Below, in pieces: positions 17,727 to 37,812 of a DNA stretch of 64,000 nucleotides. The stretch's first letter is position 1, and each line of letters begins with the position of its first letter. The DNA comes from an archaeon. Its GTDB lineage: Archaea > Nanobdellota > Nanobdellia > SCGC-AAA011-G17 > VGLX01. The DNA lies in the NCBI GenBank assembly GCA_043810595.1, contig JBDRNX010000031.1, positions 25,443 to 89,442 of the forward strand, read 5' to 3'. The notes below the pieces were generated by a model, which saw only the letters and a program-made list of their open reading frames with translations, had not been told where the DNA came from and did no database searches. A program made the translations under genes and the position numbers.

Positions 17727-17876
17727 TTATTTCTTTTTTGCCTTTTTCTTCTTATCTTCTTCTTCCAGTATTAATGCTCCTATATACCCACATTTCTTGC
17801 ATATGTATTTTCCGAAGTGCGCGCCCATGTACAGGGTTATGTCTTCGGATTTGCATTTTGGGCATTTCAGAACCAT
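17727..17876 (-). CDS. Small zinc-ribbon protein overlapping the 3' end of the PolD large subunit gene
   Basis: 49 aa: MVLKCPKCKSEDITLYMGAHFGKYICKKCGYIGALILEEEDKKKKAKKK with CPKC...CKKC; overlaps the DP2 stop by about 10 nt. Confidence 0.4.
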   Translation of the reverse strand: MVLKCPKCKSEDITLYMGAHFGKYICKKCGYIGALILEEEDKKKKAKKK

Positions 17877-20800
17877 TTGCCCAGGGCCTCTTGTTTGTCT
17901 ACTTCTTTTCCGAATACGCTGTCTATCCTGTTTTTGGTCAACTCTAGGGTTTGTCTCAAGTAGGGTGGAAGCGAGTATTTCTCTGCCAAGAACAGTGATG
18001 GCGCCAGGTATTTTATGATGCTTCCTTGTGATATCGTAAATATTATCCTTCCTCCGCATTTGCATCTTCCAGTTAATGGAGGTCTTCTGTATTTCTGGTT
18101 GCAGTCTACGCATCTGAATTGTTGCATTGAGAATTTTCTCAGGTTTCCTCTTATGTCCCTGAGTAGGTGCTTTTCTATCACCAGTCTTGCTACGTCTGCT
18201 TCGTCTACTGCCCTTATTTTTTCTGCTAGCTGTAATTGTTTCATTATTTTTTCCAGCATGGTTGGTATGTTTTTGTATGCGCTTCTTCTTGTTCCATCGT
18301 TTATGTCCGTTGTGTCATGCGTGAATCCGTAATCGTAGTATTGTTTTTCTGTTCCCAGTCTTGATTTTAGTTGTTCTATTTGTATTTCCCAGGGGTATTT
18401 GTATTCTTGTGCTGCTTCGTACAGCTCTAGGGGGTACTCGTATACGACGTCCATGTCAAATACCATGTCGTCTACTTCTGTGGGTATTATTTTTGATGAT
18501 TGCACTAGCGGTGCGTCCTGTACAGATCCCCTGTGGGAGGGCAGGTAGCTTCTCGAGAAGTTTATTAGTGCATCTAGCAGTAGTATTACGCATGCCTCAT
18601 CTCCATCTGCATCTCTTCTCATCAGGCTGTGGTAGAGTGGGTGTGCCATGAATCCTTGTGTTTTTGAGAATCCTATTATTCTTGCTACCACTCCTGCTGA
18701 TGTGTGGGGGCTCATTCCAAGTACAAGGTGTCCAACCAGTTCTTTTTCTGTCTTTAGGTTGTAGAATTTTTTCATTCCGTAGAGTCTTAGTAGCATTTCG
18801 TCTATGAATTTTGATACCCTGAATAGTACTTTGTCCGCTCCTTCCTCTGGTCCTTCTGTGAATCCCGGTAGTACTACGTCTTGTGGTTTTAGTTCTAGTA
18901 TTTGGTCGTCTCTTTCCAGTTTCTTGTCGTATATGTCTTTTTCGTAGCCCAGTTCTTTTAGTTTTGCTACGCTTATTCCTATTTCTTTTGGCTTGAAGTG
19001 TGTGAGCACAGTTTCTGTCATGTCATACCTTATTGTTCCGTCTTTGTTTACGTATACTTTGTTTATCGCTCTCAGGATTCCCTTAGCCAGGTTTTCTGGT
19101 ATGTGGTTTTTGTTTGATGTTCCCCTTACTCCTTTGATCACGGGGGGTATGTTTTTTGTTTTTATTTTTTTGATTGCTTGATCGAAGTAGTATTTTATGT
19201 CTATTTCTTGTGTTTTGTAGTTCTGGTTTTTTCCGTGTTCTCCGCATTGGTCTGTTTCGTAGTCTTTTTTGCATCTCGGGCAGTGGTAGAGTTTCTTTGT
19301 TTTTTCTCCGCATTGCTCGCAGATTGGGTATATGGTTGTTTTGTTGCATTTTTCGCATTTGTGTATCGGGAAGTCTCCTGTCACTTTTCCCTTTTCTATA
19401 GCCGTTTTGAAGTTTCTCATCTTTCCGCCTTCTTGTCCCACCGGGAATAGTACTTGCGGGCTTCCGTCCATCTCTCTCTGTTTTGCTTTTTCAGGCCTTC
19501 CCATCCTCGCTCCTATGAACGTTCCTGACTTGTCTCTTATGGTTATTCCTGAGATTGCATTCACTATTTCCAGCACGTTTTCAGTTTCCATGCCGTTTAT
19601 TTTTTGCACTACCTCATCTACGTGGTTGAATTCATCTAATCCCAGTGCTGCCAGCAGTGCTGTTACTTCGTCTCCCTTTATTGTTATGTTTTCTTTTGCT
19701 GTTACAGTATGGGGTAATCCTAGAAGTTCTAGTGCTCTTTTCGGGTCTTTTCCCTCTACGTCGCTTGTTACGTCGTAGACGTATGGCAGTGTTATTTTGT
19801 CTTTTTCTGTTTTGCCTTGTTTTATCCAGTTCAACAGCGTTAGCAGTTGTTTTTTGTTTATTTCTTTCCAATGGTATGTGTGTTTTGGATGCAGCGGCAC
19901 TTTGTTTTGTCTTGCTATTTTTATTGATTCTTCTATGTCGTTTACTTCTTTTTTTATCCCTGCTTTTTCGAGTTCTTTCTTGTACCACTCCTCATTATAG
20001 CCGCAAGGTACTAGTCTGTGAGCCCTGTTGAAGAAATCACCATAATTTATGAGTATGTCCCCTAGGAATATTATTTCTTCGACATCTTTGACGTATTTTC
20101 TTGCTTTCTCTTCAGTGTCTAGCATCATTACTGATCCGTTTTTCAGCTTCACAGTTGGTCCTTCTATTTGGTCGCATACTGCTATTGCTGTCGCTTTTCC
20201 CGGTCTTTCCATTTTTAGTTGGGTTCCTATTGCTACGAAGTCGTCCATCACTGCCATGCTCGCAGGGTGTACTGCATCAGAGCTGAACCCCGAGTTTCTG
20301 CATCTTCCGTACCTTAGTCTGAATCCGCCTTTTCTTAGCGGGTGTGTGAGTACCGGTCTTCCTCCCACAAGGTCGTGTATGAACGTGTAGTCTGGTTTGA
20401 TTTTTTCTTGTGCCCCCTCTTCTCCTTGTGCTTTGCTTTTTTTCTGTATTTCTAGGAATTCGTCAAGGAAGTCCCATTGTTCAAGTTCAAAGTCTTTTCC
20501 CCATTTTTTAAGCTGTGTGTTTACTTTCTTTGCTTTTTGTGCCAAACATTCTGCTAGAACTAAGCATGGCCCGTTCCTTATTCTGTTGGTTCCTATTCTT
20601 TTCAAATCCTTGTAGTTGCTTACCTCATATTTTTCTGAAGGGTCGCCGTCAATTTGTACTGGCAGTTTTTTTATCAAAAATCTTAGTTCTTCTTCGCTAG
20701 GGTAGTATTGTAGGTTGGTTACTCTATCATGGTAATCGTATACTTCTGTTACGTTCCTGTTCAGTTCTTCTTCTGTGATGTCATATGCCTCATATCCCAT

Positions 20801-21319
20801 CTTCTTTCTTATGTAGTCAGCTATTAACACTGATACTGATGCTCCTGTTCCTCCTGCGCTTCTTACGGGTCCTGAGTACATTAACGCAAAATAATTTTTT
20901 CCGTCTCTTCTCTGTCTTATTTGTAGTTCAACAAAGCCTTCTAGTGGTGATGCTACTACTCCTACTGTTGCGTATGCAAACCCTACCCTTATTCCTATTT
21001 CCATGGCTTCTCTTTCGTCTTTGAATTTGCAGAATTTTTGTTGTGTTACTTCTAGTGCTACTGTTAGTGCTACTCTCCAGTCTAGTGTGCCATACTGCTT
21101 TTCGAGTTCGTGTATTCTTTGTACCACTCCAGAACCTTTGATTTGCGGTGCTACTGCGCTTATCAGTCCTTCTACTCTTTCTGCCATGTTAGCTGCAAGT
21201 GGTATTTCTACGTAATCTAGAGGGTCGTGGCCTTTTTTTCTTGCTTCTTCAGCTGTTTTGTAGCATTTTTGCAGTTCGAGGTCTAGATTCTCAAAATATT
21301 TGTCTATTTCTGTAGGCAT
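17867..21319 (-). CDS. polC: DNA polymerase II (PolD) large subunit DP2
   Basis: 1150 aa; DP2 catalytic region RRDADGDEACVILLLD and multiple Cys4 zinc modules; no intein-sized insertion. Confidence 0.9.
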   Translation of the reverse strand: MPTEIDKYFENLDLELQKCYKTAEEARKKGHDPLDYVEIPLAANMAERVEGLISAVAPQIKGSGVVQRIHELEKQYGTLDWRVALTVALEVTQQKFCKFKDEREAMEIGIRVGFAYATVGVVASPLEGFVELQIRQRRDGKNYFALMYSGPVRSAGGTGASVSVLIADYIRKKMGYEAYDITEEELNRNVTEVYDYHDRVTNLQYYPSEEELRFLIKKLPVQIDGDPSEKYEVSNYKDLKRIGTNRIRNGPCLVLAECLAQKAKKVNTQLKKWGKDFELEQWDFLDEFLEIQKKSKAQGEEGAQEKIKPDYTFIHDLVGGRPVLTHPLRKGGFRLRYGRCRNSGFSSDAVHPASMAVMDDFVAIGTQLKMERPGKATAIAVCDQIEGPTVKLKNGSVMMLDTEEKARKYVKDVEEIIFLGDILINYGDFFNRAHRLVPCGYNEEWYKKELEKAGIKKEVNDIEESIKIARQNKVPLHPKHTYHWKEINKKQLLTLLNWIKQGKTEKDKITLPYVYDVTSDVEGKDPKRALELLGLPHTVTAKENITIKGDEVTALLAALGLDEFNHVDEVVQKINGMETENVLEIVNAISGITIRDKSGTFIGARMGRPEKAKQREMDGSPQVLFPVGQEGGKMRNFKTAIEKGKVTGDFPIHKCEKCNKTTIYPICEQCGEKTKKLYHCPRCKKDYETDQCGEHGKNQNYKTQEIDIKYYFDQAIKKIKTKNIPPVIKGVRGTSNKNHIPENLAKGILRAINKVYVNKDGTIRYDMTETVLTHFKPKEIGISVAKLKELGYEKDIYDKKLERDDQILELKPQDVVLPGFTEGPEEGADKVLFRVSKFIDEMLLRLYGMKKFYNLKTEKELVGHLVLGMSPHTSAGVVARIIGFSKTQGFMAHPLYHSLMRRDADGDEACVILLLDALINFSRSYLPSHRGSVQDAPLVQSSKIIPTEVDDMVFDMDVVYEYPLELYEAAQEYKYPWEIQIEQLKSRLGTEKQYYDYGFTHDTTDINDGTRRSAYKNIPTMLEKIMKQLQLAEKIRAVDEADVARLVIEKHLLRDIRGNLRKFSMQQFRCVDCNQKYRRPPLTGRCKCGGRIIFTISQGSIIKYLAPSLFLAEKYSLPPYLRQTLELTKNRIDSVFGKEVDKQEALGKWF

Positions 21320-21398: not shown

Positions 21399-23036
21399 TT
21401 AACTCGAGAACTTCAGCATTCTCATTTCCCTAGTCTTCAGGTTGATTATTGGTACTCTTGAAGGTTCTGGGTGGTGTCCTGTTTTTTCTTGGAATGCTGT
21501 TTTTGATTGCCAGCAGCTCGCACATATCGTTGTTATGTTGTTATAACTGGATATTGCTGCTCTGTGTATGTGTCCCGTTACAAATAAATCTGGTACCTTG
21601 TTTATTACCATTATGTCTTTTTTTGTGTCCGGTATGTACAGGTTAGATCCGTGTGTTGGTGCTAGGTGTCTTTTTTGTAGTAAGAATCTCATTATCAGTT
21701 CTGGTTTGTCATACCCCCCATTCATTCTTATGTAATCTACGTTGCTCGCGTAGTAGTCAAAGCTGTAACCATGGTATAATAGAACGTCAAATCCGGGGAA
21801 GTCTTTTGATGATTGTATGTTTACGACGGCAGGGTTGCTTACCATCATGATGTTTGGTAGTTTTAACAGGTCTGGTGCCATCTCTTCTGTTAGTGGCGGT
21901 TGCGGTTCTGATATTCTCAGTGCGTCGTGGTTGCCTGGGCAGATTATTATTTTCACGTCTTTTCTTATCAGGCCTAGGAGTTCTGCTGCTTTCTCGTATT
22001 GTTTTCTTATGTCGCTTATCGCTAGTTCCTTATCCTGTTCCGGGTATATTCCCACGCCGTCTACCAAATCCCCAACTATGAACATGTATCTTGTTTTTTT
22101 TGCCATTTCTTTTTGTTCCCTGTTTCCGCTTTTGCAGTTTATCCAGTTGATGAATCTCGTGAAGTCCTTTGCTAGGAATAGGTTGCTTCCTATGTGCAGG
22201 TCTGCTGTGAATACCGCGTATGTTTCATCTGGCGCTTTTCTTATCTCTTTTGTTAGTGGCACGTCTGGTGTTAGGATTTCGTTTGCAAATATCACTTGTC
22301 CGCTTAGAGTTCCTCTTATTCCCACCACTTCATCTGTGACCAGGTTTTTTGTGAGGTTTATGAGTTCGTTTTTGTTTTTGTTTATTATTACTGTTATTTG
22401 TCCTGTTGGGTCTTCTACTGTTAGGGTTGCTCCGCCGTTTTTTGTTGTTCTTTTTTCTATTATCATCCCTATGATTTCTGTTCTTGGTATTTTTGTCTTG
22501 CCGCTCAGTCTGTTTATCGATACCACGTTCTGCAGGTCTGATCTGTTTTGCAGTATTTCTTTGAGTGAGTTGTATCTTGCTTTGAAGTGGCTTACGAAGT
22601 CTTTTACATCTCTTTTCTGGGCATCTTCGTTGTAGGATTCCAGCACTATGACATTATGTTCTATTCCATCTCCGTTTGTTATTTCCAAGGTTTCTTCTGG
22701 TTGTTTTATCTCTTCCAGTATGGTGTCGAGTTTTTCTTTTTTCTCTTCGTCTATGTTGTATTCCATCAAGTCCAAGAATGTCTCGTAGACTTTTCCGTTC
22801 TTTCCCTTTTCCATGAGGGCTCTTGATCTTTCGAATTCTGTCCAGTTTATTATCAATGGTTTTCTTGTTTTTTTGAGCACTTTATGTAAATCCCTGTTTA
22901 TCACTAGAGGTTTTGTTGCTGTTCTTATTTTTTTATCGATGTCTTGTAAGAATTTTTCGTCGAGCTCTTCTTCCATTAGGTCTGGACTTATGAGGTAACC
23001 TTGTTCTATGAAGTTTTTTATGAGCTCTTCCTTCAT
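21399..23036 (-). CDS. polB: DNA polymerase II (PolD) small subunit DP1 (calcineurin-like phosphoesterase)
   Basis: OB-fold N-terminal region; phosphoesterase motifs DLHIGS, GDLVDG, GNHD, GHIH. Confidence 0.9.
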   Translation of the reverse strand: MKEELIKNFIEQGYLISPDLMEEELDEKFLQDIDKKIRTATKPLVINRDLHKVLKKTRKPLIINWTEFERSRALMEKGKNGKVYETFLDLMEYNIDEEKKEKLDTILEEIKQPEETLEITNGDGIEHNVIVLESYNEDAQKRDVKDFVSHFKARYNSLKEILQNRSDLQNVVSINRLSGKTKIPRTEIIGMIIEKRTTKNGGATLTVEDPTGQITVIINKNKNELINLTKNLVTDEVVGIRGTLSGQVIFANEILTPDVPLTKEIRKAPDETYAVFTADLHIGSNLFLAKDFTRFINWINCKSGNREQKEMAKKTRYMFIVGDLVDGVGIYPEQDKELAISDIRKQYEKAAELLGLIRKDVKIIICPGNHDALRISEPQPPLTEEMAPDLLKLPNIMMVSNPAVVNIQSSKDFPGFDVLLYHGYSFDYYASNVDYIRMNGGYDKPELIMRFLLQKRHLAPTHGSNLYIPDTKKDIMVINKVPDLFVTGHIHRAAISSYNNITTICASCWQSKTAFQEKTGHHPEPSRVPIINLKTREMRMLKFSS

Positions 23037-24241
23037 AGATTCAGGCCCTCTTTGAGTGTTTTTGTTATCTCGTCCATCGTTGTTTCTGGCAGGTCTAGTC
23101 TTATCTCCCTGGTTCTTCCGTATCTTCCTTTGGATATCACTTTGGTGTTTATGATTCCCAGCATGTCTAACTCTGCTATGATGTCTGACACTCTTCTCTG
23201 CGTTAAGGGCCTTACTCCTGTTTTCAAGCTATGTCTTTTGTATGTATCGTATATGTCTCCTGTGAATATTTTTTGTCCGTCGTTTTTGCTAAGTTCCAGT
23301 ATTGAGTATGTCACTAGTTTGAATTGTTTTGGGTTTATTTTTACTGCTTCTATTATTCTGTCCCTGTCTATTTTTTCTTCTGCTTGGTCCAGGTTTTTGA
23401 TTAGTATTTTTTCTTGGTTGTTTCTTTCTGCTAATTCGCCTGCCACCCTGAGCAGTTCTATCGCTCTTCTTGCATCTCCGTGCTCTCTTGCCGCGTATGC
23501 TGCGCACTTCTCGATTAACCCCCCTTCTAGCACATCATCTTTTAACGCCATCCTTGTTCTCTGTCTCAGTATACTCTGTAGTTGTATGGCGTTGTACGGC
23601 TCGAATAGTATTTCTTCTTCTGACAGTGAGCTTTTTACTCTCGCATCAAGTTCGTTTGTGAATTTCAGGTCGTTTGATATTCCTATCAGGCTTACCACGC
23701 TGTGTTTCAGTTCTGTGTTTATTCTTGTTAGTGTGTATAGAATTTCGTCGTTTATTTTTTTGACGAGCTGATCTATTTCATCAAGTATTATTATGAGCAT
23801 TATTTTTTGTTCTTCTATCATTTTTAGGAATACGTCATACACGTCTTTTGTTGGCAGTCCTGTAGTTGCTACTTTTCCCCCCATCTCCTGTATTACTTGT
23901 GCTATTAGTCTGTATTCTGTGTCTGCTACCCTTTGTAGTTTACAGTTTAAGTATATTATTTTTAGGGGCACGTTGTTTTTCTGTGCCATTTCTTCTATTT
24001 CTCTTGTTACGTATTTTATTACTACGGTCTTTCCTGTGCCTGTTTTTCCATATATGAATAGGTTGGATGGTTTTTCTTTTCTTAAAGCTGGTGCTAGTAT
24101 GCTTGCTACCTCTTCCATTTGTTTTTTTCTGTGTGGTATTTCCTTTGGCACATAGGTTGATTGAAGGTATTTTTTGTTTATGAACAAAGGATCCTTTTTG
24201 AGGTAGTTCTCTAAGAATTTACTTAACCCCGTTTCAGACAT
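23033..24241 (-). CDS. cdc6: Orc1/Cdc6 replication initiator (AAA+ with winged helix)
   Basis: Walker A GKTGTGKT, Walker B LIIILDEID and a C-terminal wHTH; 4-nt overlap with DP1, operon-like. Confidence 0.9.
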   Translation of the reverse strand: MSETGLSKFLENYLKKDPLFINKKYLQSTYVPKEIPHRKKQMEEVASILAPALRKEKPSNLFIYGKTGTGKTVVIKYVTREIEEMAQKNNVPLKIIYLNCKLQRVADTEYRLIAQVIQEMGGKVATTGLPTKDVYDVFLKMIEEQKIMLIIILDEIDQLVKKINDEILYTLTRINTELKHSVVSLIGISNDLKFTNELDARVKSSLSEEEILFEPYNAIQLQSILRQRTRMALKDDVLEGGLIEKCAAYAAREHGDARRAIELLRVAGELAERNNQEKILIKNLDQAEEKIDRDRIIEAVKINPKQFKLVTYSILELSKNDGQKIFTGDIYDTYKRHSLKTGVRPLTQRRVSDIIAELDMLGIINTKVISKGRYGRTREIRLDLPETTMDEITKTLKEGLNL

Positions 24242-24730
24242 CGTTTCCCCCTTTCCATATATTAGTCAAAATTTTTGAAAAAAATTTTAAAATTCATTAT
24301 GAGGAACTACTATGGTGTATTTAAAGATTTTTATTTTGTAAGTTGTATCACCTACCCCTTGTGTTCCATTGCACATTTCATTTTACAATTTTTCTTGTGT
24401 TTTGTTGTGTTATCATTTCTGAATTAAGAAATGTTGCTGAAAAGTAACACCATCCTTTCCTATGGAACTTTTCTTGAGTAATAACACTTTTTACTTTAAT
24501 ATATATATTTTATTCTATATATTATACTATAACACGGAAATATTTAAATAATAAATAGAAAATTTTTAATTGATAGATTACTAGAATTACGTCTTTTTAC
24601 CGTCTAATTTTACAAAATAGATACTTTTTGTCATTTTTGGATTACTAATTATATTTTTTGAATAGTTTTTTGTTGTTTTAGGGTTTTAGCTTCTGTATTG
24701 TGTATATTTTCTGGTATTTCCGTAAATTTT
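24242..24730. other. Candidate replication origin: AT-rich non-coding region with inverted ORB-like dyads flanking a putative DUE, upstream of cdc6-polD
   Basis: A 489-bp non-coding region. GTTCCATTGCACA at 24362-24374 (+) and GTTCCATAGGAAA on the reverse strand at 24453-24467 resemble the mini-ORB consensus TCCA..GGAAA. They flank an ~80-bp AT-rich stretch. Confidence 0.5.
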
Positions 24731-25705
24731 TTACTGATTTTTTCCATGAGAAATAGGGGTCTGGGGGTGTATTAGAAATCCCTTTAGTTTATCTGCACGG
24801 TCAAAAACTTTGTATTTGTTGTATGCTATCCTAAACATCAGTATTTTTTCATGTTTTAGCATATCCCTTTTGCTTAAGTATATTACAATTTCTTTTTTGT
24901 GCTCTTTTTCTATCTTTTCTAGTAGTTCGCTTTGTTGTTTTAATGTGTAGCCGCAGCTTTCTGTCAGATCGAAAACGTAGATTATTGTTTCTCCCAGGTG
25001 TTTCATTGCTGTGTGTGCTATTTTTTCTATGTCATTCATCTTGTCATACCTATTTAGTGTTCCTGGTGTGTCTATCACTTGCAGTTCTTTCCCTACATAG
25101 CCCATCATTATGTCTTTTGTTGTGAATGCGTATGGCTTTATTTCTACGTTTGCTTTTGTCAGCCTTTTTAATAGGGTTGATTTTCCTACGTTTGGGAATC
25201 CTGTTATGCATGCTGTTTTGATTTTGGTTTTTATGTTTGGTATCTCTTTTACCGCTCTTCTGGCTTCTTCCAGGTATTTGAGCACCCCCCCTATTTTTTT
25301 TATTAATGAGCTCATTCTTCCGTAGAATTCTCTCTTGTTTCTTTCTGCTTTTTGGTTGTTTTTGCTGAACCTTATTCTGTTCTTATAATCATTGTGGAGT
25401 TGTGCCGCTTTGTTTTTTGTCCAGTTAATTCTTCCCAGGGTCTCTTTCAGTTTTTTCGTTCCTATTTTTATTTCTATGAGTTCTCTGTAGAATTCTGCTA
25501 GTTGGTTTATGTTTGGGAATGTTTTTTCTATCTTGCTTAGGTCTTCGTAGATTGAGTCTTTTGCTGTTTTTATCTCTTCCATCAATCTTACTTTTATTTT
25601 CTTTTTCGGATCCTTTACTTTGACTTTTACTTTTCTGGCTCTGTTTATTGCCTTCCTCATGTAAAATTCTGGTTTTTCTATTTTCAGTTCGCCGAATGCC
25701 ATCAT
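24731..25705 (-). CDS. NOG1/Obg-type GTP-binding protein
   Basis: G1 GFPNVGKST, G3 DTPG, and the coiled N-terminal region typical of archaeal Nog1-like GTPases. Confidence 0.7.
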   Translation of the reverse strand: MMAFGELKIEKPEFYMRKAINRARKVKVKVKDPKKKIKVRLMEEIKTAKDSIYEDLSKIEKTFPNINQLAEFYRELIEIKIGTKKLKETLGRINWTKNKAAQLHNDYKNRIRFSKNNQKAERNKREFYGRMSSLIKKIGGVLKYLEEARRAVKEIPNIKTKIKTACITGFPNVGKSTLLKRLTKANVEIKPYAFTTKDIMMGYVGKELQVIDTPGTLNRYDKMNDIEKIAHTAMKHLGETIIYVFDLTESCGYTLKQQSELLEKIEKEHKKEIVIYLSKRDMLKHEKILMFRIAYNKYKVFDRADKLKGFLIHPQTPISHGKNQ

Positions 25706-26121: not shown

Positions 26122-26391
26122 ATGGTTGACGAAGAGAGGGAGAAAAGGTACGCTAGACAGATCATGGGTAAGACCGTTGTTACGAAGTCTGGTAAGCGTT
26201 TTGGCGAAGTTAGTAACATTACTTTTGAGACTAGGACTGGTGAGTTGATCCAGATTGTTCTCAGGAATCCTACAAGTTATGCTCAGGGTCTTGATTTGGA
26301 AAGGGATAAGGGAGGTAATCTGACCATTCCTTTTTCGGCTGTCATGGCTATAGGCGACTTTGTTGTTGTTGCTGAAGAAGATATCGTTTAG
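26122..26391 (+). CDS. PRC-barrel domain protein
   Basis: 89 aa; the GKTVVTKSGKRFGEVSNITFE beta-rich pattern resembles the PRC-barrel ORF at 5566-5841. Confidence 0.5.
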   Translation: MVDEEREKRYARQIMGKTVVTKSGKRFGEVSNITFETRTGELIQIVLRNPTSYAQGLDLERDKGGNLTIPFSAVMAIGDFVVVAEEDIV

Positions 26392-26439: not shown

Positions 26440-28305
26440 ATGCCCCGCAAGTATGAGTCTACAAAGGATATTAAGGTTTCTCCTGTGATTGCCGATCAGA
26501 TTATCGGTCAGGATGAGGCGGTTAATATTATTAAGAAGGCTGCTAGGCAGCGCCGCCACGTTCTCTTGATTGGTGATCCGGGTACTGGTAAGTCTATGAT
26601 TGGGCAGGCTCTGGCTGAGCTTCTGCCTAGGGAGCGTCTTAAGGACATTCTTTCAGTCCCTAATCCTACTGATGATAACGTCCCAATCATTAACACCGTT
26701 CCTAAGGGGGATGGTAAGATTCTTGTTACTAGGGCTAAGCTTCAGTCGATGTCTTCTTTCAAGAATCAGAGTGTTATCATGTTCCTCTTTGTTTTGGTGG
26801 TTTCCCTTCTTCCTTATTATTTTTGGCGTAAGGGTTACATTTCTGATATTATTTACGCAGCCAGCATGATTACCGGTATCGTTTTCATCGTTGGTTTTAT
26901 GATTTTCCTTAACTTGAATAAGCGTACTCGCAGCTCTTCAGTTATTGTGCCGAGGCTTCTTGTTGATAATTCTGATAAGGTTAAGGTTCCTTTTGTTGAT
27001 GCTACTGGTGCTCATGCCGGTGCCTTGCTTGGGGATGTTTTGCATGATCCTCTGCAGTCTGGCGGCTTTGGTACTCCTGCTTATGAGCGCTTGATTCCCG
27101 GTATGATTCACCGTGCTAACGGTGGTGTTTTGTTTATCGATGAGGTTGCTACCCTTTCGCGTAAGTCGCAGCAGGAGTTGCTTACAGTGACTCAGGAGAA
27201 GAAATACCCGATAACTGGTCAATCCGAGCGTTCTTCCGGTTCGATGGTTCGTTCTGAGCCTGTGCCTGCTGATTTTGTTTTGGTGGCGGCTGGTAACGTT
27301 GAGACTGTCCAGCACATGCATCCTGCTCTTCGCTCAAGGATTAGGGGTTATGGTTATGAGATTTACATGAATAACCACATGCCTGACACTCCTGAGAACA
27401 GGGATAAGATTGCTGTTTTCGTGGCCCAGGAGGTTACTAAGGATAAGAAGATCCCTCATTTCAGTAAGTCTGCTGTTGATGAGATAATTAATGAGGCTAA
27501 GCGTCGTGCTGACTCTTCTAACAGCCTTACCTTGAGGTTGAGGGAGCTTGGTGGCATTGTTCGTGCTGCGGGCGACCTTGCTTACGAGAAGGGTGCTAAG
27601 CTTGTGCAGCGTGAACATGTTCTTGGGGCTAAGCGTATTGCCCGTTCGCTTGAGCAGCAGATTGCTGATAGGTACATAGAGAACAAGAAGAAGTATGAAG
27701 TCATCGTTACTTCTGGTAGGCGTGTGGGTCGTGTTAACGGCTTGGCTGTTATCGGTTCTGGCTATGCCTTTTCAGGGGTTATCTTGCCTATCGAGTCCGA
27801 AGTTACTCTTGGTGGTAAGAGGGCTGAGTTTGTTGCTACTGGTCGTTTGGGTGAGATTGCTAGGGAGGCTGTTAAGAACGTTACAGCTATTATCTTGAAG
27901 TTTTTTGGTGAGGACATTAAGGAGAAGTATGACATTTATGTGCAGTTTTTGCAGACACAGGAGGGTGTTGAGGGTGACTCTGCTTCTATTGCTGTTGCTA
28001 CCGCTATCATTTCTGCTTTGAAGAAGCTTCCTGTTAAGCAGGATTTGGCTATGACTGGTTCGCTGTCTGTTCGTGGTGAGGTTCTTGCTGTTGGCGGTGT
28101 TACCTCTAAGATTGAGGCAGCTATAGAGGCGGGTATTCACACTGTAATAATTCCTAAATCTAATTTGAAAGATGTTGTTCTTTCCAAGGATGCGGCTTCT
28201 AAGGTGGATATAGTTCCTGTTTCTAATATCAGGGAAGTTTTGAAAGTGGCCTTGGATTGGAAGGGCAGGGAATCTATTTGGAGAAAGATTTCTAAATCAC
28301 AATAA
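26440..28305 (+). CDS. lon: Archaeal membrane-bound Lon protease (LonB)
   Basis: Walker [13 protein letters not shown], two TM helices inserted in the AAA domain, and a C-terminal S16 domain with the catalytic Ser context [15 protein letters not shown]. Confidence 0.9.
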
Positions 28306-28563
28306 ACCTTTGTATGCTTCGAATGCTTCTTTTGTTAGCGCCCACACCTTTTTTGTTTTGTACTCTCTTCCTGTCACCGCTTTTGGTACTTCTTTTACCA
28401 GTCCTCTCACTTTCATCTCGTTCAGCAGTCTTAGCGTGAACTCGTCGTCTCTGATTATTTCTTCTCCTATCCTGTACGTGGACAGCCCGGTTATGTTTTC
28501 GTATAGGACGCTTAGAATTTCTTCTTTGATTCTTTCCTCTCTTTTTTTGGATATCCTTGTCAT
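28297..28563 (-). CDS. Small winged-helix DNA-binding protein
   Basis: 88 aa; helix-turn-helix-like segment ([13 protein letters not shown]...[13 protein letters not shown]). Confidence 0.4.
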
Positions 28564-30390: not shown

Positions 30391-30825
30391 ATGCCTATAG
30401 TTGGTTTTAATTTCGATAAGATCCTTGTAGAGAGGATTAAGCCCGTCGAGGGGCAGGTTAAGGTTAAGAGGAATCTTTCTATCAAGGATATTAAAAAGCA
30501 GGAGATTGTCCTCAGCCCTAAGAAAAAGGAAGAGATCCTTAAGTGTAACTTTGATTTTTCTGTAGATTACGAACCTGGTTTGGGTAAGATCTTAATTGAG
30601 GGCCACATACTTTTCATTGATGAGCCCGCTGAGATTAAGAAATTGTTTGATGGTTGGAAGAAAAATAAGGAGCTTCCTGTACCAATCATGACCTTGTTGC
30701 TCAACACAGCCTTGGTAAGGTCTAACATCAAGGCCTTGAGTCTTATTCAGGATGTTAATTTGCCTCCACACATGCAATTACCGACGATAAATCCTAAGTC
30801 TAAGGCTAGCGATTATATTGGTTAA
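30391..30825 (+). CDS. Hypothetical protein
   Basis: 144 aa with host-like codon usage; no recognisable motif. Confidence 0.4.
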   Translation: MPIVGFNFDKILVERIKPVEGQVKVKRNLSIKDIKKQEIVLSPKKKEEILKCNFDFSVDYEPGLGKILIEGHILFIDEPAEIKKLFDGWKKNKELPVPIMTLLLNTALVRSNIKALSLIQDVNLPPHMQLPTINPKSKASDYIG

Positions 30826-30891
30826 AATAGTTCTCAAACAAACAAACAAACGCATCCCAAACACATCTAGGGACGTGCTCGGAGAGACAAA

Positions 30892-31599
30892 ATGGCTGAT
30901 TTTGATTCTGAAAGGGAAGAGAGGCTGAAATTAGCGTTTTCCAAGATAAAAGCCGATATTGACAGCCTCCGAAGCGAGTTTAACGCGCTAAAAGAAATCA
31001 TAACCAAACAACAGGACCTCATGGAGGTCTTCCTTTCTAAAATGGCTCAAAACAGGCAAGAAAGCCAAGATTTTGAGGGTTTTTCGGGTATTCCGCTAGA
31101 GGGTTCCACAGGAAATGAAGGGGTCCAAACAAACAAACAAACAAACAAACAAACAAACAAACAAACACATCCCAAACAAACAAACACATCTTTACCAGTT
31201 TTATCGACGGAAGAACAAAAAACCCAAACCCCCCATTTACCAACCCCTCAAACCGCCCTTCCCCTCTCCACCATGAAAAAAGATCTCCTGAACAAGTTTG
31301 TATCTCTCCCCAAAAGGGAATTTCTGGTATTTTTGACCATTTATCAACTAGAGGCCGACAAGGGTTCTGTTACCTATCCTGACATCGCAAGCCAGCTCAA
31401 ACTCTCAGAAAGTGGGGTTAGGCACTATGTTTTTAATCTCATCAAGAAGGGGGCCCCTATCCTGAAGAGGAAAATCAACAATAAATCGACGGTACTCTCA
31501 CTTTTGCCCGAATTTAAGGAGTTAAACCTCCAAAAAGAGCTTGTTGATATCTACCTCCACCTGGACTCTCATCAGAGAACACTTATGGATGAATACTGA
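30892..31599 (+). CDS. Coiled-coil / low-complexity repeat / C-terminal winged-helix protein; paralog of 31860-32537 with atypical codon usage for a + strand gene
   Basis: Central (QTNK)n encoded by (AAAC)10. C-terminal wHTH (FLVFLTIYQLEADKGSVTYPDIASQLKLSESGVRHYVFNLIKKG). A/C-ending codons are unlike other + strand genes. Confidence 0.55.
   Translation: MADFDSEREERLKLAFSKIKADIDSLRSEFNALKEIITKQQDLMEVFLSKMAQNRQESQDFEGFSGIPLEGSTGNEGVQTNKQTNKQTNKQTHPKQTNTSLPVLSTEEQKTQTPHLPTPQTALPLSTMKKDLLNKFVSLPKREFLVFLTIYQLEADKGSVTYPDIASQLKLSESGVRHYVFNLIKKGAPILKRKINNKSTVLSLLPEFKELNLQKELVDIYLHLDSHQRTLMDEY
31127..31166 (+). repeat. Perfect (AAAC)10 tetranucleotide microsatellite inside the CDS, followed by the degenerate copy ACATCCCAAACAAACAAACACATC; a related segment sits at 30835-30868 in the gene's 5' leader
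   Basis: Direct reading: aaac x10 from 31127. The upstream copy caaacaaacaaacaaacgcatcccaaacacatc ends about 20 bp before the ATG. Confidence 0.85.
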
Positions 31600-31603
31600 T
31601 TAT

Positions 31604-31828
31604 CTCTCACTTTTTTAGTTTTATGCGTAATTTGGGTCTGTTAACACTTAATTTCTCTCAGCGCCCCTCATTTTTTACCAGTTTCTCCCTAATCCCTTCT
31701 TATTACCTCTTGATATCCCCTATTTTCTTCTCACTTTATAGAATTTATACGTAATTTACCCTTGTTATTTCCCTTTTTTCATTGCTTTTCCTACCTATTT
31801 TCCTCTCACTTTATAGAATTTATACGAA
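31604..31828 (+). repeat. Three promoter-like direct repeats (CTCACTTT[T/A]TAG(AA)TTTATRCGWA) in a convergent intergenic region
   Basis: R1 at 31604-31634, R2 at 31726-31757 and R3 at 31801-31828. R2 and R3 share 23 identical bp (tctcactttatagaatttatacg). Each contains a TTTATA TATA-box-like core. Spacing is 125 and 74 bp. Confidence 0.6.
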
Positions 31829-31859
31829 CAAATCTCTCTGTTCCTACCATGTTCTTAAC

Positions 31860-32537
31860 CTATTTTTTTACCCTTTTCTTTGCCTGTACTTCTACCTTTT
31901 TTGGCTTTTTTAGGATCTCTTCTTTTACTTTCTCTTCTACGTAGAACCTCTTTGTTCCGTCATTCTCTACAACCTCTTTCACGAGATCCGGACTCTTCAG
32001 TTTTATGTTAGTTATCTGCCCCCTAAGTGTTGATTTGTTTTTTCCTAAAATCATACACAAATCCTCATAACTCATTTTTGCATCAGAATTTAGTAAAATC
32101 CATATCAATCCTCTTTCCATAACTGATAAATTTTTCAATTTTTCTAGGGTGTTTGTTTGGACGGACATCTGTTTTAAACGGACATCTGTCCTTTGGACAC
32201 GTGTTTGGACGCCCGTTTGGACACGTGTTTGGACACGCGTCCAAACCCCCTTTATTTCTTCCATATCTCCCTCTATTTTGTCCAATCTTTTGTGTAAATT
32301 TTCAAACCGGTCTTCATGTTTTTCGTGTTTTTCAGTGAAGTGAGTTATCCAAACGTTAACCGCATCCATATCTTTTTTCAAATTTGTAAAAGAAAAACCT
32401 AATTTTTTGTTTAGATCCCCAATTTTTTCATGAGCTGCATCGTCTCTTTTTTTAAAAAAACCAAAAACCATAGTTAACTTACAAAGTTTACTCTTTAATA
32501 AACCTTCCTTTTTTGCTAGAAACTTTTTGTAATTCAT
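31860..32537 (-). CDS. Coiled-coil / repeat / winged-helix protein; paralog of 30892-31599
   Basis: Central VWTRVQTRVQTGVQTRVQ repeats and a C-terminal wHTH (LIWILLNSDAKMSYEDLCMILGKNKSTLRGQITNIKLK); host-like A-ending codons. Confidence 0.55.
   Translation of the reverse strand: MNYKKFLAKKEGLLKSKLCKLTMVFGFFKKRDDAAHEKIGDLNKKLGFSFTNLKKDMDAVNVWITHFTEKHEKHEDRFENLHKRLDKIEGDMEEIKGVWTRVQTRVQTGVQTRVQRTDVRLKQMSVQTNTLEKLKNLSVMERGLIWILLNSDAKMSYEDLCMILGKNKSTLRGQITNIKLKSPDLVKEVVENDGTKRFYVEEKVKEEILKKPKKVEVQAKKRVKK
32150..32245 (-). repeat. Degenerate 12-bp tandem repeats (GTCCAAACACGT-like, read on the coding strand) encoding the TRVQ/VQT repeat
   Basis: Four or more units of gtttggacacgt / gtttggacgccc / gtttggacacgc on the + strand, flanked by ggacatctgt half-units. 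Confidence 0.7.
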
Positions 32538-32599: not shown

Positions 32600-33367
32600 A
32601 TGAAAGAATTCACCTACGATGGGGTCACCTACAAGATTGACGATTCTAAAAAGGTTAGTGGAGTGGGTGACTTTGATGAGAATGCCAAGACTATCCTCAT
32701 AGATAACGATATGCCGGATAAGTTTCACGACGGTATTGCTGTTCACGAAATTGAGGAGAGGAAGTTGATTAGGAGGGGCCACAGTTATGTTTATTCACAT
32801 AATGAGGCTCAGAAGAAGGAGCTTTCTTTTTACGAGTCCAAGTTTGGTAAGGATAAAGCCATTAAAATGCTTAATGAAGAGGAGCAAATCGTTCTTTCCA
32901 TATCTCCAGGGCGTTTGGTTACGCGTACAAAGAAGCCTAAGGACATTACTACAACGCCCCCTATCGTTGAAACTACATGGGTCAGGCAATTGATTTACGA
33001 AAGCAAGAAGTACCTTATTAATAATTCTAGCAGGCTTGTTGGTGCAATTGTTGATCTTTATGAGAAAAAGAGTATTATTTACATAGATTGTGACGTTCCT
33101 GAGAGATTTTTTGAGGGTTTGGCTGTTTTTGAGATCGAGACTCGTAAGTTGATTAAGAAGGGGTTTAGTTATAATCAGGCATATGATGCGGCTCAGAAGA
33201 AGGAAGAGGCGTTTTACGAGACTAAATTCGGCAAGGATGTTGCTCATAAGATGGTAGATGAGGAGGCTAAGTTGCAGTCCAGGAAGTTTTCTGCTGAGAA
33301 AAGGGAGCTGAAAAACGAGAACGGTCATAAGGTGATTTATGGTAAGGATGAGATTCTTTCCAGTTAG
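32600..33367 (+). CDS. Hypothetical protein with an internal tandem duplication of a ~100-aa module
   Basis: Module 1: DNDMPDKFHDGIAVHEIEERKLIRRGHSY...AQKKELSFYESKFGKD. Module 2: DCDVPERFFEGLAVFEIETRKLIKKGFSY...AQKKEEAFYETKFGKD. Confidence 0.5.
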   Translation: MKEFTYDGVTYKIDDSKKVSGVGDFDENAKTILIDNDMPDKFHDGIAVHEIEERKLIRRGHSYVYSHNEAQKKELSFYESKFGKDKAIKMLNEEEQIVLSISPGRLVTRTKKPKDITTTPPIVETTWVRQLIYESKKYLINNSSRLVGAIVDLYEKKSIIYIDCDVPERFFEGLAVFEIETRKLIKKGFSYNQAYDAAQKKEEAFYETKFGKDVAHKMVDEEAKLQSRKFSAEKRELKNENGHKVIYGKDEILSS

Positions 33368-36996: not shown

Positions 36997-37812
36997 ATGT
37001 TTGATCAATTGGAAACTGAGCTTAAATTGCGTGGTTTTTCTCAACAAACCATCAAAACGTACATCAGGCATAATAAGTTGTTCTTGGATTACGTTAAGAA
37101 GGAACCCAGTCAGGTCACTGAGGAGGACATTAAGAATTATCTTGCTCACGCGATTTCTGATGAGAAGGCAGCACCTAGAAGTATTGCTTTGAAGAAGGCT
37201 GCTCTTAAGTTTCTTTATGATGAGATGATGCGGAAGGGTATTGTTAATCTGAAAACTCCAAAAATTCCCAAGTCCAGCCCGTCCGTACTTACAAAGGAAG
37301 AGATTAAATCCTTGATAGAAGCAGCCCCCCGTGACAAAACTAGGTTGATAATGGAGTTGATTTATTCTTCAGGTCTCCGTGTTTCAGAATGTGTTACCCT
37401 TAAGGTTAATGACTTGGATTTGGATGGTAAGATAGTGAGGGTGAAATCAGGGAAAGGTAACAAGGACAGGATTACAATACTTTCTCAGACTGTAGTTAAT
37501 GGGCTGAGGCGTTACATCTTGACTTTGGATAAGAACGAGCAGTACTTATTCCCTAACTCTAAAGGGAGCAATCTTTCTGTTCGCAACATTCAGAAGCTTG
37601 TACAGAAGGCAGCTTCGAAGGCAGGGATAAAGAAGAATGTTTCTCCTCACGTGCTCCGTCACAGCTTCGCAACCCACCTCCTTGAAGGAGGTACAGATAT
37701 AAGGCTTATACAGGAATTGCTCGGCCATTCGCAGTTGTCGACGACACAGATATATACCCATGTCTCGCGGGAGCAGATTAGCAGGATAAAAAGCCCCCTC
37801 GACACCATATGA
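36997..37812 (+). CDS. xerA: Tyrosine recombinase, XerA/XerC/XerD-like
   Basis: SAM-like N-terminal domain and a catalytic R...HVLRHSFATHLLEGGTDIRLIQELLGHSQLSTTQIYTHV region (R-H-R-Y). Confidence 0.85.
   Translation: MFDQLETELKLRGFSQQTIKTYIRHNKLFLDYVKKEPSQVTEEDIKNYLAHAISDEKAAPRSIALKKAALKFLYDEMMRKGIVNLKTPKIPKSSPSVLTKEEIKSLIEAAPRDKTRLIMELIYSSGLRVSECVTLKVNDLDLDGKIVRVKSGKGNKDRITILSQTVVNGLRRYILTLDKNEQYLFPNSKGSNLSVRNIQKLVQKAASKAGIKKNVSPHVLRHSFATHLLEGGTDIRLIQELLGHSQLSTTQIYTHVSREQISRIKSPLDTI

Follow-up and report, generated by a model that had tools for sequence, protein, structure and literature searches.

An origin recognition box and slippage-prone repeats in the linker-coding DNA of a convergent, origin-proximal pair of predicted winged-helix genes in DPANN archaea

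Introduction

Arrays of protein-binding sites located in the linker-coding part of the gene of a DNA-binding protein are found in the O gene of phage lambda, which harbors ori lambda, and in the repC gene of pT181. The gene pair described here, referred to as A and B, resembles these systems in that arrays are placed in linker-coding DNA, which would act as code and as cis-element at once. On the other hand, A and B give no sign of being initiators, their best-identified site is one for Orc1/Cdc6, and the pair is chromosomal and vertically inherited; moreover, the region adjacent to the arrays has 33% GC and the polarity of the origin recognition box (ORB) points elsewhere. Clustered near-origin repeats, partly located in genes, are also occupied by the helix-turn-helix or winged-helix proteins RacA, which carries a coiled coil and binds ram sites, and ParB, which binds parS. 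The A-B locus shares the origin-proximal clustering of sites with them, but its domain order and fold family differ and no partner NTPase (ParA/SegA-like) was found within ±10 kb. The DPANN archaea have tiny genomes, mostly devoid of partition systems, and to our knowledge nothing is known experimentally about how the replication of their chromosomes starts or is organized; the literature search found no paper linking DPANN, ORBs and the A/B family.

Archaeal ORBs and mini-ORBs, such as the ORB cluster in dp1 of Pyrococcus, present the same TTCC..GGAA dyad, GAAAT and G-string as the box reported here, and likewise occur within a few kb of cdc6 (PMC1904270). The Pyrococcus dp1 boxes lie inside coding DNA and are still bound by Cdc6 in vivo (PMC1904270). 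The present locus differs from these known ORBs by having one or two boxes fixed family-wide in the linker-coding segment of a winged-helix gene, by their reading in two frames, by a lineage-variable microsatellite following the box, and by a distance of 1.5–7.6 kb from the AT-rich core. The ucm motif of Sulfolobus origins is, as proposed here for the non-ORB boxes, an origin-associated element other than an ORB that is read by a dedicated accessory DNA-binding protein, UBP; however, UBP has another fold and hundreds of genomic sites, and ucm is placed within the unwinding element, whereas the boxes here are confined to one locus (PMC12141716). Finally, a long perfect tetranucleotide repeat within an ORF, prone to slippage and variable in copy number, is characteristic of the contingency loci of Haemophilus and Neisseria (PMC2651432, PMC3315296). 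Unlike those loci, the repeat of gene A was seen in in-frame alleles only, keeps its position over deep divergence while its unit changes, and belongs to the gene of a conserved, origin-proximal, predicted DNA-binding protein.

The A-B Gene Pair and Its Neighborhood

The window, which is the whole 64-kb stretch of archaeal DNA analyzed, contains gene A on the plus strand (30892–31599, 235 aa), delineated from its ORF, an AlphaFold model, Foldseek searches and 37 homologs. The model of A comprises a long N-terminal helix (aa 3–59), a disordered linker (aa 60–123) and a winged helix (aa 125–224), the last with pLDDT values of 86–95 across aa 130–220. The top Foldseek matches were the ArsR/SmtB/MarR winged-helix proteins CadC, SmtB and MarR (E ~1e-3, TM to target 0.56–0.64), and the model and these matches concur on a winged helix-turn-helix fold for the C-terminal domain. 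In contrast to such regulators, the proteins of the pair remained below all Pfam and NCBIfam thresholds (the best Pfam match, HTH_24, scored 19.9 bits against a cut-off of 21.9, HTH_36 and DnaD_N matched A weakly, and NCBIfam yielded none above cut-off), presumably dimerize through an N-terminal helix of 55–80 residues, and have a disordered linker of 20–60 residues. No PHROGs family passed its threshold either, and a PDB sequence search returned weak, non-significant matches only.

Gene B is located on the minus strand and had been described as spanning 31860–32537. This long ORF is indeed present, but the start is most likely at 32471 (M23 of the long ORF), yielding a gene at 31860–32471 that encodes 203 aa, in agreement with NCBI MFH1332180.1 (203 aa) and with the family N-terminus MxFGFFKK. 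The layout of B includes a hydrophobic-basic N-terminus (MVFGFFKK), a helix (aa 5–86), a disordered repeat linker (aa 87–106), a winged helix (aa 108–186) whose recognition helix, KSTLRGQIN, is nearly invariant, and a Lys-rich tail. The pairwise similarity between A and B is weak (22% identity, E=0.005) and becomes convincing only because of the comparison of their profiles by hhalign (probability 97%, E=3e-11). Together with the architecture of both proteins, this comparison bears out the preliminary description of A and B as homologous coiled-coil/winged-helix proteins; judged from their profiles, they are ancient paralogs composed of a long helix, a disordered linker and a winged helix.

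A profile search of contigs with a 16-sequence alignment recovered 3 loci. In each of the 69 DPANN loci whose flanks were long enough, A and B converge, and the MAGs bearing the pair are labeled Woesearchaeota, Pacearchaeota and Nanoarchaeia. In the window, the canonical oriC (24242–24762) lies beside the orc1/cdc6 initiator gene (23036–24241, minus strand; Pfam Cdc6_C, Cdc6_lid and AAA), which is on the same strand as the genes of PolD DP1 (21399–23036; DNA_pol_E_B) and DP2 (17867–21319; PolC_DP2). A motif search placed ORB-like boxes at 24444–24467 and 24354–24374 on the minus strand and at 24742–24762 on the plus strand, and the first and the last of these flank, in inverted orientation, an AT-rich core with 19% GC (24480–24720), as also observed in loci L087–L090. 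Further conserved members of the origin-proximal cluster are a PRC-barrel protein (26122–26391, plus strand; Pfam PRC, E=1.3e-8), a PRC gene being placed between A and oriC in L087–L090 as well, and an 88-aa small protein (28297–28563, minus strand) with 41% identity (E=8e-13) to a 92-aa neighbor of A in L087. The gene preceding A encodes a 144-aa protein of unknown function (30391–30825, plus strand), which is a conserved neighbor of A, with 33% identity (E=1e-20) to a 139-aa neighbor in L087 and synteny with A in L001–L003.

An Origin Recognition Box Inside Gene A

The linker-coding DNA of A contains an ORB, TTCCACAGGAAATGAAGGGGT, at 31104–31124 on the plus strand, which encodes S-T-G-N-E-G-V and is the sole perfect match to the consensus TTCCANNGGAAANNNNGGGGT in the window. 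Its dyad, TTCCANNGGAA, occurs in the 64 kb only at this position and at 24457, in the cdc6-adjacent origin. The dyad core with its TTCC and GAA motifs (TTCCAnnGGAAA) is present at 31104–31115 as TTCCACAGGAAA, it is followed on its 3′ side by the G-string GGGGT (31120–31124), and the box agrees with 14 of the first 16 nucleotides of the reverse-complemented P. furiosus ORB1 oligo. The Pyrococcus ORB1 with which the box agrees is bound by Cdc6, and ORB clusters within the coding part of Pyrococcus dp1 are likewise occupied in vivo (PMC1904270). We infer from this agreement that Orc1/Cdc6 binds within gene A.

Several observations indicate that the box is conserved as DNA. The family peptide S-x-G-N-x-G-V is encoded by the invariant TTCCAnnGGAAAnnnnGGGGT, and among 63 A genes its codons were TCC in 63, GGA in 61 and GGG in 63, compared with usages elsewhere of 14% for TCC (P=3e-50) and 22% for GGG (P=6e-34), these Fisher P-values overstating independence because the sequences are phylogenetically related. 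Moreover, eight A genes carry two ORBs, spaced 43 or 73 bp apart and in different reading frames, with essentially no difference between the two copies in the six genes that have them 43 bp apart. When a weight matrix was built from the A sites, its next-best matches fell in the regions upstream of cdc6, and an ORB was also found upstream of B in L023 and L069.

The distance from the ORB of A to cdc6, the AT-rich oriC with its inverted ORBs and PolD was 1.5 kb in L087–L089, 7.6 kb in L090 and 6.3 kb in the window, and the dyad end of the box faced oriC in all five of these long contexts (five genomes examined). Placed inside a gene at 1.5–7.6 kb from the AT-rich core, this box does not directly flank the unwinding element and is an outlying one, like ORB3 in dp1 of Pyrococcus; distant and intragenic as it is, it may have no role in initiation.

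Repeat Arrays in the Linker-Coding DNA

Directly after the ORB, gene A presents a tract composed of C and A only (31125–31190, plus strand), in which a perfect (CAAA)10 at 31126–31165, equivalent to (AAAC)10 at 31127–31166 and translated as QTNKQTNKQTNKQT, is followed by CACATCC(CAAA)2CAAACACATC, the whole encoding QTNKQTNKQTNKQTHPKQTNTS. Apart from one (AT)5, (CAAA)10 is the only simple repeat of at least 5 units in the window. Similarly, when perfect runs of period 4 with at least 4 units were counted across related loci totaling 344 kb, A genes (46.5 kb) held 39 and all other DNA held 1, a distribution that places the repeat enrichment in A far above chance; the single exception was the copy located upstream of A in the window. 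In the relatives of A the tract begins directly after GGGGT without exception, but its unit is lineage-specific (CAAA, CAGA, CAAG, CATT, CACT or a 12-mer), and the encoded peptide is not kept where the unit has changed (QTNK, TDRQ, QASK, HSFI, HSLT, HMQT). The 48 nt on the 3′ side of the ORB in A genes are composed of 49% A, 31% C and 9% T. The recognition helix of A is variable, and a strict code relating it to the repeat unit was not upheld, as QTNK tracts are paired with RHY, RSY, RTH, RGY and RDY helices.

A second copy of the tract, already recognized in the preliminary description, is located in the non-coding DNA that separates the stop codon of the 144-aa gene from the A start (30835–30868, plus strand). 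It consists of (CAAA)4 CGCATCC CAAACACATC, and 30835–30863 is 97% identical to 31150–31178 across 29 nt. The orthologous loci L001–L004 have such an upstream copy with 1–4 copies of the 11-bp unit CAAACACATCC, in L006, L007, L010 and L013 the upstream motif and the coding unit change together, and overall the upstream sequence and the coding unit vary together in five separate clades; in the majority (CAGA) clades, no upstream copy of the tract was found. The in-frame read-through of the 144-aa gene into this copy (QTNKQTHPKHI) was considered and set aside as trivial, given that this T-poor DNA lacks stop codons.

In B, the tandem array at 32192–32237 comprises 3.8 copies of the 12-bp unit GTCCAAACACGT, translated as TRVQTRVQTGVQTRVQ. 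As previously claimed, the central regions of both genes are tandem repeats of DNA with a common core, GTCCAAAC, which occurs six times in the window, always within A or B (plus strand, 31123 and 32239; minus strand, 32155, 32203, 32215 and 32227). The four minus-strand copies form, on the strand of B, an array of TGTYCAAACA boxes (32150–32246), in which the inverted copy at 32239–32246 generates GTTTGGACacgcGTCCAAAC. At the nucleotide level the VQT units of B are this box, present in 3–5 copies at 12-bp spacing in the linker DNA of the family and identical at 9 of 10 positions to the flank of the ORB in A, GTTCCAACAG. Synonymous sites are strongly biased: Q is encoded by CAA in 232 of 232 cases (P=2e-43, which overstates independence for the reason given above), T by ACA in 210 of 232 and V by GTC or GTT in 225 of 232, while GTC reaches 48% in the boxes against 7% and the preceding four-fold site is T in 192 of 212 (91% against 42%). 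In addition, 38 of 266 box copies are off the usual reading frame and read as LSKQ, L006 retains 4 boxes with the VQT peptide absent, and boxes were also found at −51 of B in one clade and upstream of A in the clade of the window. Both elements, the ORB and the TGTYCAAACA box, are constrained at synonymous sites and are also found in other reading frames.

The A-B convergent intergenic region (31600–31859) is T/C-rich on the plus strand and carries ~30-nt repeats (31605–31633, 31719–31751 and 31794–31826) as well as oriented copies of the CTCACTT box (31606, 31730 and 31805). In 69 intergenic regions, CTCACTT was found 146 times in the sense of A and 0 times in antisense. No Rfam family matched the intergenic region, and the window together with four 20-kb relatives yielded no known RNA families other than tRNAs.

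The arrays of A and B change by slippage, in frame. For example, the B protein of the Logan contig L084 is that of the window minus one 12-bp VQTR unit, and orthologs of A have 7 units, or interrupted 5+4 units, compared with 10 in the window, so the remodeling by slippage and the variation in copy number expected by the preliminary description are both apparent. All length differences between relatives were multiples of 12 bp, and none of the 64 assembled, box-bearing A ORFs uncut by a contig end was out of frame. No exact match in a collection of 15 billion proteins was obtained for the A protein, for any of four variants with in-frame unit changes, for four products of frameshifts or for two other starts, and B alone gave a strain-level variant in protein and contig look-ups. 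A re-initiation model, in which the shifted frame ends in ATGA over Met128, was rejected because Met128 is not conserved.

Proposed Role and Alternative Explanations

We lean toward explaining the repeats as a local version of cis-elements that operate at the nucleotide level and are embedded where an origin-proximal gene pair encodes its disordered linkers, with the QTNK and VQTR peptides as passengers. As the constraint is on nucleotides, these odd peptides would be by-products of DNA signals, and reading the two-frame box as a DNA signal explains a puzzling conserved low-complexity peptide. That the tract abuts an ORB, that the repeats are nucleotide-level elements and that the locus belongs to an origin-proximal cluster had all been missed before. 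For the non-ORB boxes (TGTYCAAACA, the C+A tract and CTCACTT), we infer the binders from sequence: the winged helix of B would bind the TGTYCAAACA boxes in B, in the ORB flank of A, upstream of A in the clade of the window and, for one clade, at position −51 relative to B, and A, with its variable recognition helix, may recognize the tract specific to its own lineage together with the corresponding upstream copies. Orc1/Cdc6, A and B on their boxes would form a nucleoprotein platform beside oriC, which might make A and B expression depend on occupancy by the initiator, through roadblock or autoregulation, or serve in origin organization. Slippage starting at the ORB flank (ACAGAC or CAAAC) is the probable source of the tetranucleotide array, the linker being expected to tolerate any in-frame sequence. 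The missing upstream copy in the CAGA clades, the inconsistent pairing of helix and unit in A and the distance of the intragenic ORB from the AT-rich core weigh against this explanation.

A bolder proposal, which we regard as unlikely, is that A and B constitute an unrecognized origin-organizing system of DPANN archaea that controls initiation or anchors and segregates the origin, with its own binding sites in linker-coding DNA. In such a system, operating in cells without ParAB/SegAB, B would be tethered by MxFGFFKK, which could be a membrane-binding helix, and, extended by its 80-residue helix, would sit on the 12-bp-spaced TGTYCAAACA boxes, while A, paired with B via the long helices, would be placed next to Orc1/Cdc6 at the ORB of its own gene. 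Whatever its role, the locus supplies a conserved set of cis-elements, namely an ORB whose polarity is defined, boxes spaced by 12 bp and CTCACTT boxes that are oriented, and since it places two uncharacterized, predicted DNA-binding proteins beside oriC, the question of how DPANN replication is organized becomes testable in vitro with recombinant proteins. It also appears to illustrate cleanly, in a natural setting, how a signal for protein binding can constrain coding DNA, one 20-nt box being read in two frames.

The start of the tract always right after GGGGT, the free drift of unit and peptide, the presence of in-frame states only, the disorder of the linker and the weak correspondence between helix and unit would equally be expected if the microsatellite of A were functionless, with bound Orc1/Cdc6 or the ORB flank promoting polymerase slippage, a period-4 array being regenerated beside the box because a disordered linker tolerates any in-frame product, and only the ORB and the B boxes under selection. 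This account is nevertheless improbable in our judgment: the joint variation of non-coding upstream copy and coding unit in five clades is not predicted for a pure by-product, pure tracts of 7–10 units carry a frameshift load and yet are kept in dozens of lineages, and the ORBs of oriC are not followed by tracts of the C+A type. Another view, that a one-unit gain or loss toggles A between a full-length and a truncated, helix-only protein and creates heritable ON/OFF heterogeneity, draws on the bacterial tetranucleotide paradigm (PMC2651432, PMC3315296). The perfect, non-triplet (CAAA)10 inside an ORF, like the runs in relatives that reach 8 perfect units, has a length at which slippage is frequent in bacteria, frameshift products would end at 126–164 aa without the winged helix, and two assemblies made independently are interrupted at the edge of the tract. 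However, such a switch is very unlikely, since the 64 assembled alleles include no OFF state and differ by 12-bp multiples alone, the predicted ON/OFF variants were unmatched in the exact look-ups, arrays are interrupted or short in many relatives (the longest perfect run is at most 4 units in 19 of 40 A genes having a run of at least 3), and the gene is of a conserved, origin-proximal housekeeping type rather than a surface or restriction gene. The phase or length switch put forward in the preliminary description as the reason for the tract is thus not supported by the assembled alleles, the position of the tract moreover outlasting its unit; OFF alleles may still arise at low frequency, and in-frame microsatellites should not be read as phase switches without population data.

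Since initiator genes containing their own origin are known, as in lambda O, the module could also be viewed as a second origin, a replicator-initiator unit like whiP/oriC3 of Sulfolobus in which A, B or both are initiators, the boxes in the two genes are their iterons and the T-rich intergenic region is the unwinding element. The inverted arrays bracket a 260-bp region with 33% GC and oriented repeats, an ORB is present, and the weak HTH_36 and DnaD_N matches of A point in the same direction. Even so, this possibility is remote, given that the dyad end of the ORB points away from the intergenic region and toward the canonical oriC, whose own dyad ends face the AT-rich core, that 33% GC is far less AT-rich than the 19% of oriC, that the arrays are ~1 kb apart and that helicase-loader features are absent. 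Least credible is selection on the peptide, in which a QT-period-4 linker motif is maintained and the likeness of the DNA arises from codon bias and homogenization by slippage. Although the VQTxVQTxVQT and GVQTNKQTNKQT peptides are conserved in most members, synonymous sites are frozen far beyond the codon usage of these genes, including the rare codons GTC, TCC and GGG, and this freezing, the off-frame boxes, the two-frame ORBs and the boxes of L006 largely refute a peptide-level reading; in addition, boxes occur in non-coding DNA and the A peptide is wholly altered when the unit changes.

Age and Orientation of the Pair

A 13-nt in-frame inverted repeat connects A (31123–31135) and B (32150–32162), and inversion at these GTCCAAACAAACA copies with a swap of the winged helix was considered. 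An hsdS-type shufflon was rejected, as none of the 69 loci has a swapped N-/C-terminal combination and the cores differ in distal clades; the N-terminal half of A is also as compositionally atypical as its C-terminal half. The atypical codon composition of A for a plus-strand gene, noted earlier, was confirmed at third positions (A.31 and T.23, against.13 and.42 in the other plus-strand genes), but its attribution to a recent inverted duplication is not supported, because a convergent pair in 69 of 69 loci across lineages is ancient. In fact, the codon composition of both genes is intermediate, and it is the same in three orthologous loci at 66–75% identity; this constancy indicates a stable state and not a fresh inversion.

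Architecture and Age of the Gene Pair

Gene A (30892–31599, plus strand, 235 aa) and gene B (31860–32471, minus strand) form a convergent pair near the replication origin. The start of B is most likely at 32471, and the resulting 203-aa product agrees with the N-terminus of the family and with NCBI protein MFH1332180.1 (MAG labeled "archaeon"). The linker-coding DNA of this ancient winged-helix pair may double as a platform of cis-elements, of which the clearest, as predicted from sequence, would be a canonical Orc1/Cdc6 box.

AlphaFold models obtained with family alignments as input predicted one common architecture, composed in protein A of a helix (aa 3–59), a disordered linker (aa 60–123) and a winged helix (aa 125–224), and in protein B of a helix (aa 5–86), a disordered linker (aa 87–106), a winged helix (aa 108–186) and a disordered Lys-rich tail, with the repeats of both genes located in the modeled linkers. 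The top structural matches were ArsR/SmtB/MarR winged-helix regulators, and searches of Pfam, NCBIfam, PHROG and PDB assigned neither protein to any family. Compared pairwise, A and B were barely similar (22% identity, E = 0.005), whereas the comparison of their profiles (probability 97%, E = 3e-11, 161 columns) indicated that they are clearly homologous, as had been claimed in the preliminary description. At the N-terminus (32447–32471 in the window), B proteins conserve a hydrophobic and basic motif, M-x-[FWL]-G-[FWL]-F-K-K, which A proteins lack and which resembles the short amphipathic helices that target proteins such as SepF to the membrane.

The pair is old and widespread. While 37 A homologs were detectable, those of B exceeded 100 in an indexed search, with 651 representatives at 50% identity, from genomes labeled Woesearchaeota, Pacearchaeota, Nanoarchaeota and Nanoarchaeia. 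When metagenomes were scanned with the B alignment as query, 80 loci of at least 559 hits were obtained, and an A-family gene was convergent to B in all 69 loci with sufficient contig flank, a count that takes in the window and three genome-collection loci besides the metagenome loci. This arrangement, together with a codon composition of A and B that was the same in three orthologous loci, led to the rejection of a recent inverted duplication as the origin of the pair. The order Lon, 88 aa, ArgRS, 144 aa, A, B was also kept in the orthologous loci L001–L003.

A Predicted Origin Recognition Box Within Gene A

A family-wide peptide, S-x-G-N-x-G-V, directly precedes the repeat tract of A, and its encoding DNA is invariant (T TCC AYW GGA AAT NNN GGG GTY). 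Ser was encoded by TCC in 63/63 sites (14% elsewhere in A genes), one Gly by GGA in 61/63 (no figure for the rest of the A genes) and the other by GGG in 63/63 (22% elsewhere). Judged by its consensus, TTCCAnnGGAAAnnnnGGGGT, this DNA is a predicted archaeal origin recognition box (ORB). The copy at 31104–31124, TTCCACAGGAAATGAAGGGGT, was the sole perfect match to the ORB consensus in 64 kb, and its first 16 nt shared 14 positions with P. furiosus ORB1 (oligo reverse complement TTCCAGTGGAAATGAAACTCTGGGGGG), which is bound by Cdc6 and has the core motifs "TTCC" and "GAA" (PMC1904270). The bare dyad TTCCANNGGAA occurred exactly twice in the window, in the ORB of gene A and, within the AT-rich DNA adjoining orc1/cdc6, at 24457.

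Eight A genes each carried two ORBs, spaced by 43 or 73 bp; where the spacing was 43 bp (six genes), the two copies were essentially identical. The copies differ in frame, one encoding S-T-G-N-x-G-V and its partner (L/V)-P-Q-E-x-x-G. Since one 20-nt element is thus maintained in two frames of the same gene, peptide selection cannot explain its conservation. In L023 and L069, an ORB followed by the flank motif of the A box (GGGGCTTCGACAGAT) was located outside the genes, some 110 nt 5′ of B in non-coding sequence.

The Origin Neighborhood

The window encodes Orc1/Cdc6 (23036–24241, minus strand) and the PolD subunits DP1 and DP2, and the segment beside them (24242–24762) has the sequence features of a textbook archaeal oriC. 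The stretch adjoining orc1/cdc6 (24242–24730) has 24% GC, and its core (24480–24720, 19% GC) lies between inverted ORB-like boxes, at 24444–24467(–), 24354–24374(–) and 24742–24762(+), with dyad ends toward the core. AT-rich tandem repeats occupy 24268–24531. Four distant relatives on long contigs shared the layout B, A, 92-aa gene, 137-aa gene, PRC-barrel gene, oriC, cdc6, DP1, DP2, with an AT-rich oriC (13–24% GC) bearing inverted ORBs and located 1.5 kb (three genomes) or 7.6 kb (one) from the ORB of A. The window has matching small genes (PRC, 26122–26391; 88-aa and 144-aa genes), spaced apart by NOG1, Lon and ArgRS. In 5/5 genomes the ORB of A had its dyad end toward oriC, co-oriented with the near-side oriC ORB; Orc1 monomers bind ORBs with defined polarity (PMC12141716).

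On the B side, 5/5 long contexts have a XerA-like tyrosine recombinase gene at 2–6 kb from the pair (window 36997–37812; L087 6761–7594; L088 6010–6837; L089 7023–7850; L090 3392–4228). It directly adjoins a small "Recombinase" (PF07508) ORF in L087 and L088, and L090 has only a faint PF07508 match about 2.4 kb away. An intein (Intein_splicing, LAGLIDADG) splits DP2 in L088 (16527–20603), and in L089 (16176–20582) the called product joins DP2 to bacterial-type PolIII-alpha domains (PHP, DNA_pol3_alpha), a fusion that could stem from an error of gene calling or assembly.

Repeat Arrays and Their Slippage

The repeats of both genes were re-checked in the window and are real and non-random. A perfect (CAAA)10 (31126–31165) runs on to 31190 as CACATCC(CAAA)2CAAACACATC, with the translation VQTNKQTNKQTNKQTHPKQTNTS, and gene B presents 3.8 copies of a 12-bp unit (32192–32237), translated as TRVQTRVQTGVQTRVQ. 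All 6 copies of GTCCAAAC in the 64 kb fell within the two genes, and apart from their repeats the sole simple repeat of at least 5 units was (AT)5. Upstream of gene A, 30835–30863 was 97% identical to 31150–31178 over 29 nt.

GGGGT is followed without a gap by the C+A-rich tract in all A genes. The 48 nt following the ORB averaged 49% A, 31% C and 9% T, with a median T-free run of 39 nt. The unit varied among loci: CAAA in the window clade (peptide QTNK), CAGA in most loci, with up to 8 perfect units (TDRQ), CAAG in L010 (QASK), CATT in L006 and L067 (HSFI), CACT in L007 (HSLT), a 12-mer in L013 (HMQT), and none in L011. Perfect period-4 runs of at least 4 units numbered 39 in A genes (46.5 kb) versus 1 in the other ~300 kb.

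Slippage, as proposed previously, does occur: in L084 (Logan contig, SRR27458548) the B protein was that of the window minus one VQTR unit and otherwise identical, and A orthologs carried (CAAA)7, (CAAA)5CAAT(CAAA)4 or (CAAA)5CACT(CAAA)4. The edge of the tract was also the end point of two independent assemblies. It had further been suggested that the tract is a potential phase or length-variation switch. A one-unit change is predicted to cut A to 126–164 aa, without the winged helix, and out-of-frame alleles surely arise; their maintenance is unsupported, as is switching as the purpose of the tract, given that 64/64 uncut ORB-bearing ORFs were in frame and that length differences were multiples of 12 bp without exception. 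An exact look-up in a collection of 15 billion proteins found no predicted ON and OFF variants of A. The tetranucleotide array would rather represent a slippage-prone flank of the Orc1/Cdc6 box.

A Conserved DNA Box in Gene B

Codon usage was counted in 232 V-Q-T units from 83 distinct B genes. Gln was CAA in 232/232 units (60% elsewhere in the same genes), Thr was ACA in 210/232 and never ACT/ACC (52% and 42% elsewhere), and Val was GTC or GTT in 225/232 (53% elsewhere), with GTC alone reaching 48% against 7%; the four-fold site preceding the unit was T in 192/212 cases (42% elsewhere). From this codon freezing, it follows that the conserved object is the DNA box TGTYCAAACA. Its spacing is usually 12 bp, 38 of the 266 sense copies were out of the VQT frame and read L-S-K-Q, and L006 retained four boxes with the VQT peptide wholly absent. 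Within 20-kb contexts the box was restricted to the A–B locus; in one clade it also occurred upstream of B, at –51 and near –260. The ORB flank opens with 10 nt (GTTCCAACAG; window clade GTCCAAACA) that matched this box at 9/10 positions, and the 12-bp array could consist of evenly spaced copies of the ORB-flank motif.

Candidate Binding Proteins

The recognition helix of B (K-S-T-L/I-R-G-Q-I-N) is nearly invariant, like its box. That of A, SESSIRDY, is conserved across the large CAGA clade and changes in exactly the unit-divergent clades (RHY with CAAA, RT/GY with CATT, RSY with CACT, RAY with CAAG, RTH with the 12-mer), and these clades also have a matching motif repeated 5′ of A. Together, the patterns of A and B suggest recognition by each protein of elements within and next to its own gene. 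The helix–unit code was inconsistent, since QTNK tracts also pair with RSY, RTH, RGY and RDY helices, and binding by A is therefore weakly supported. The ucm/UBP pair (PMC12141716) sets a precedent for an accessory motif at origins that has its own dedicated protein.

Intergenic Elements and Strand Asymmetry

Most A–B intergenic regions (31600–31859 in the window) carry 2–5 copies of an oriented box, CTCACTT(TT), with 146 A-sense versus 0 antisense copies in 69 related regions. It also occurs within the 3′ end of B, where AAAAGTGAGAG reads K-S-E-S, and resembles the complement of GGGGTGAGGG, by which the oriC ORBs of L087, L089 and L090 are extended. Distal clades (L020, L028, L037, L039, L060, L083 and others) present two conserved intergenic palindromes, TTATTCGnTTAAACGAATAA and CCCTAAATCTn(3–6)ATTTAGG, which were absent from the window clade and had no Rfam match, and a CGTCGATAAA motif 3′ of the stop codon of A.

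Divergent from B, 32600–33367 encodes a 255-aa protein in which about 120 aa (YDGVTYKIDD...HEIEERKLI...FYESKFGKD) are duplicated internally, with no family match save a weak one to a PHROG of unknown function.

Third codon positions showed an extreme strand asymmetry throughout the window and L001–L003 (T.42 and A.13 in plus-strand genes; A.50 and T.09 in minus-strand genes), and the plus strand is therefore G/T-rich throughout the window. The relatives L087–L089 were without it. Its sign did not change across the cdc6-adjacent origin (24.5 kb), so replication could be unidirectional, or the window could belong to a single replichore of a different origin. The only exempt genes were A (A.26–.36, T.25) and B (A.38–.42, T.20–.25), an exemption that was the same throughout the clade (four of four genomes), for either half of A, and when the tract was left out.
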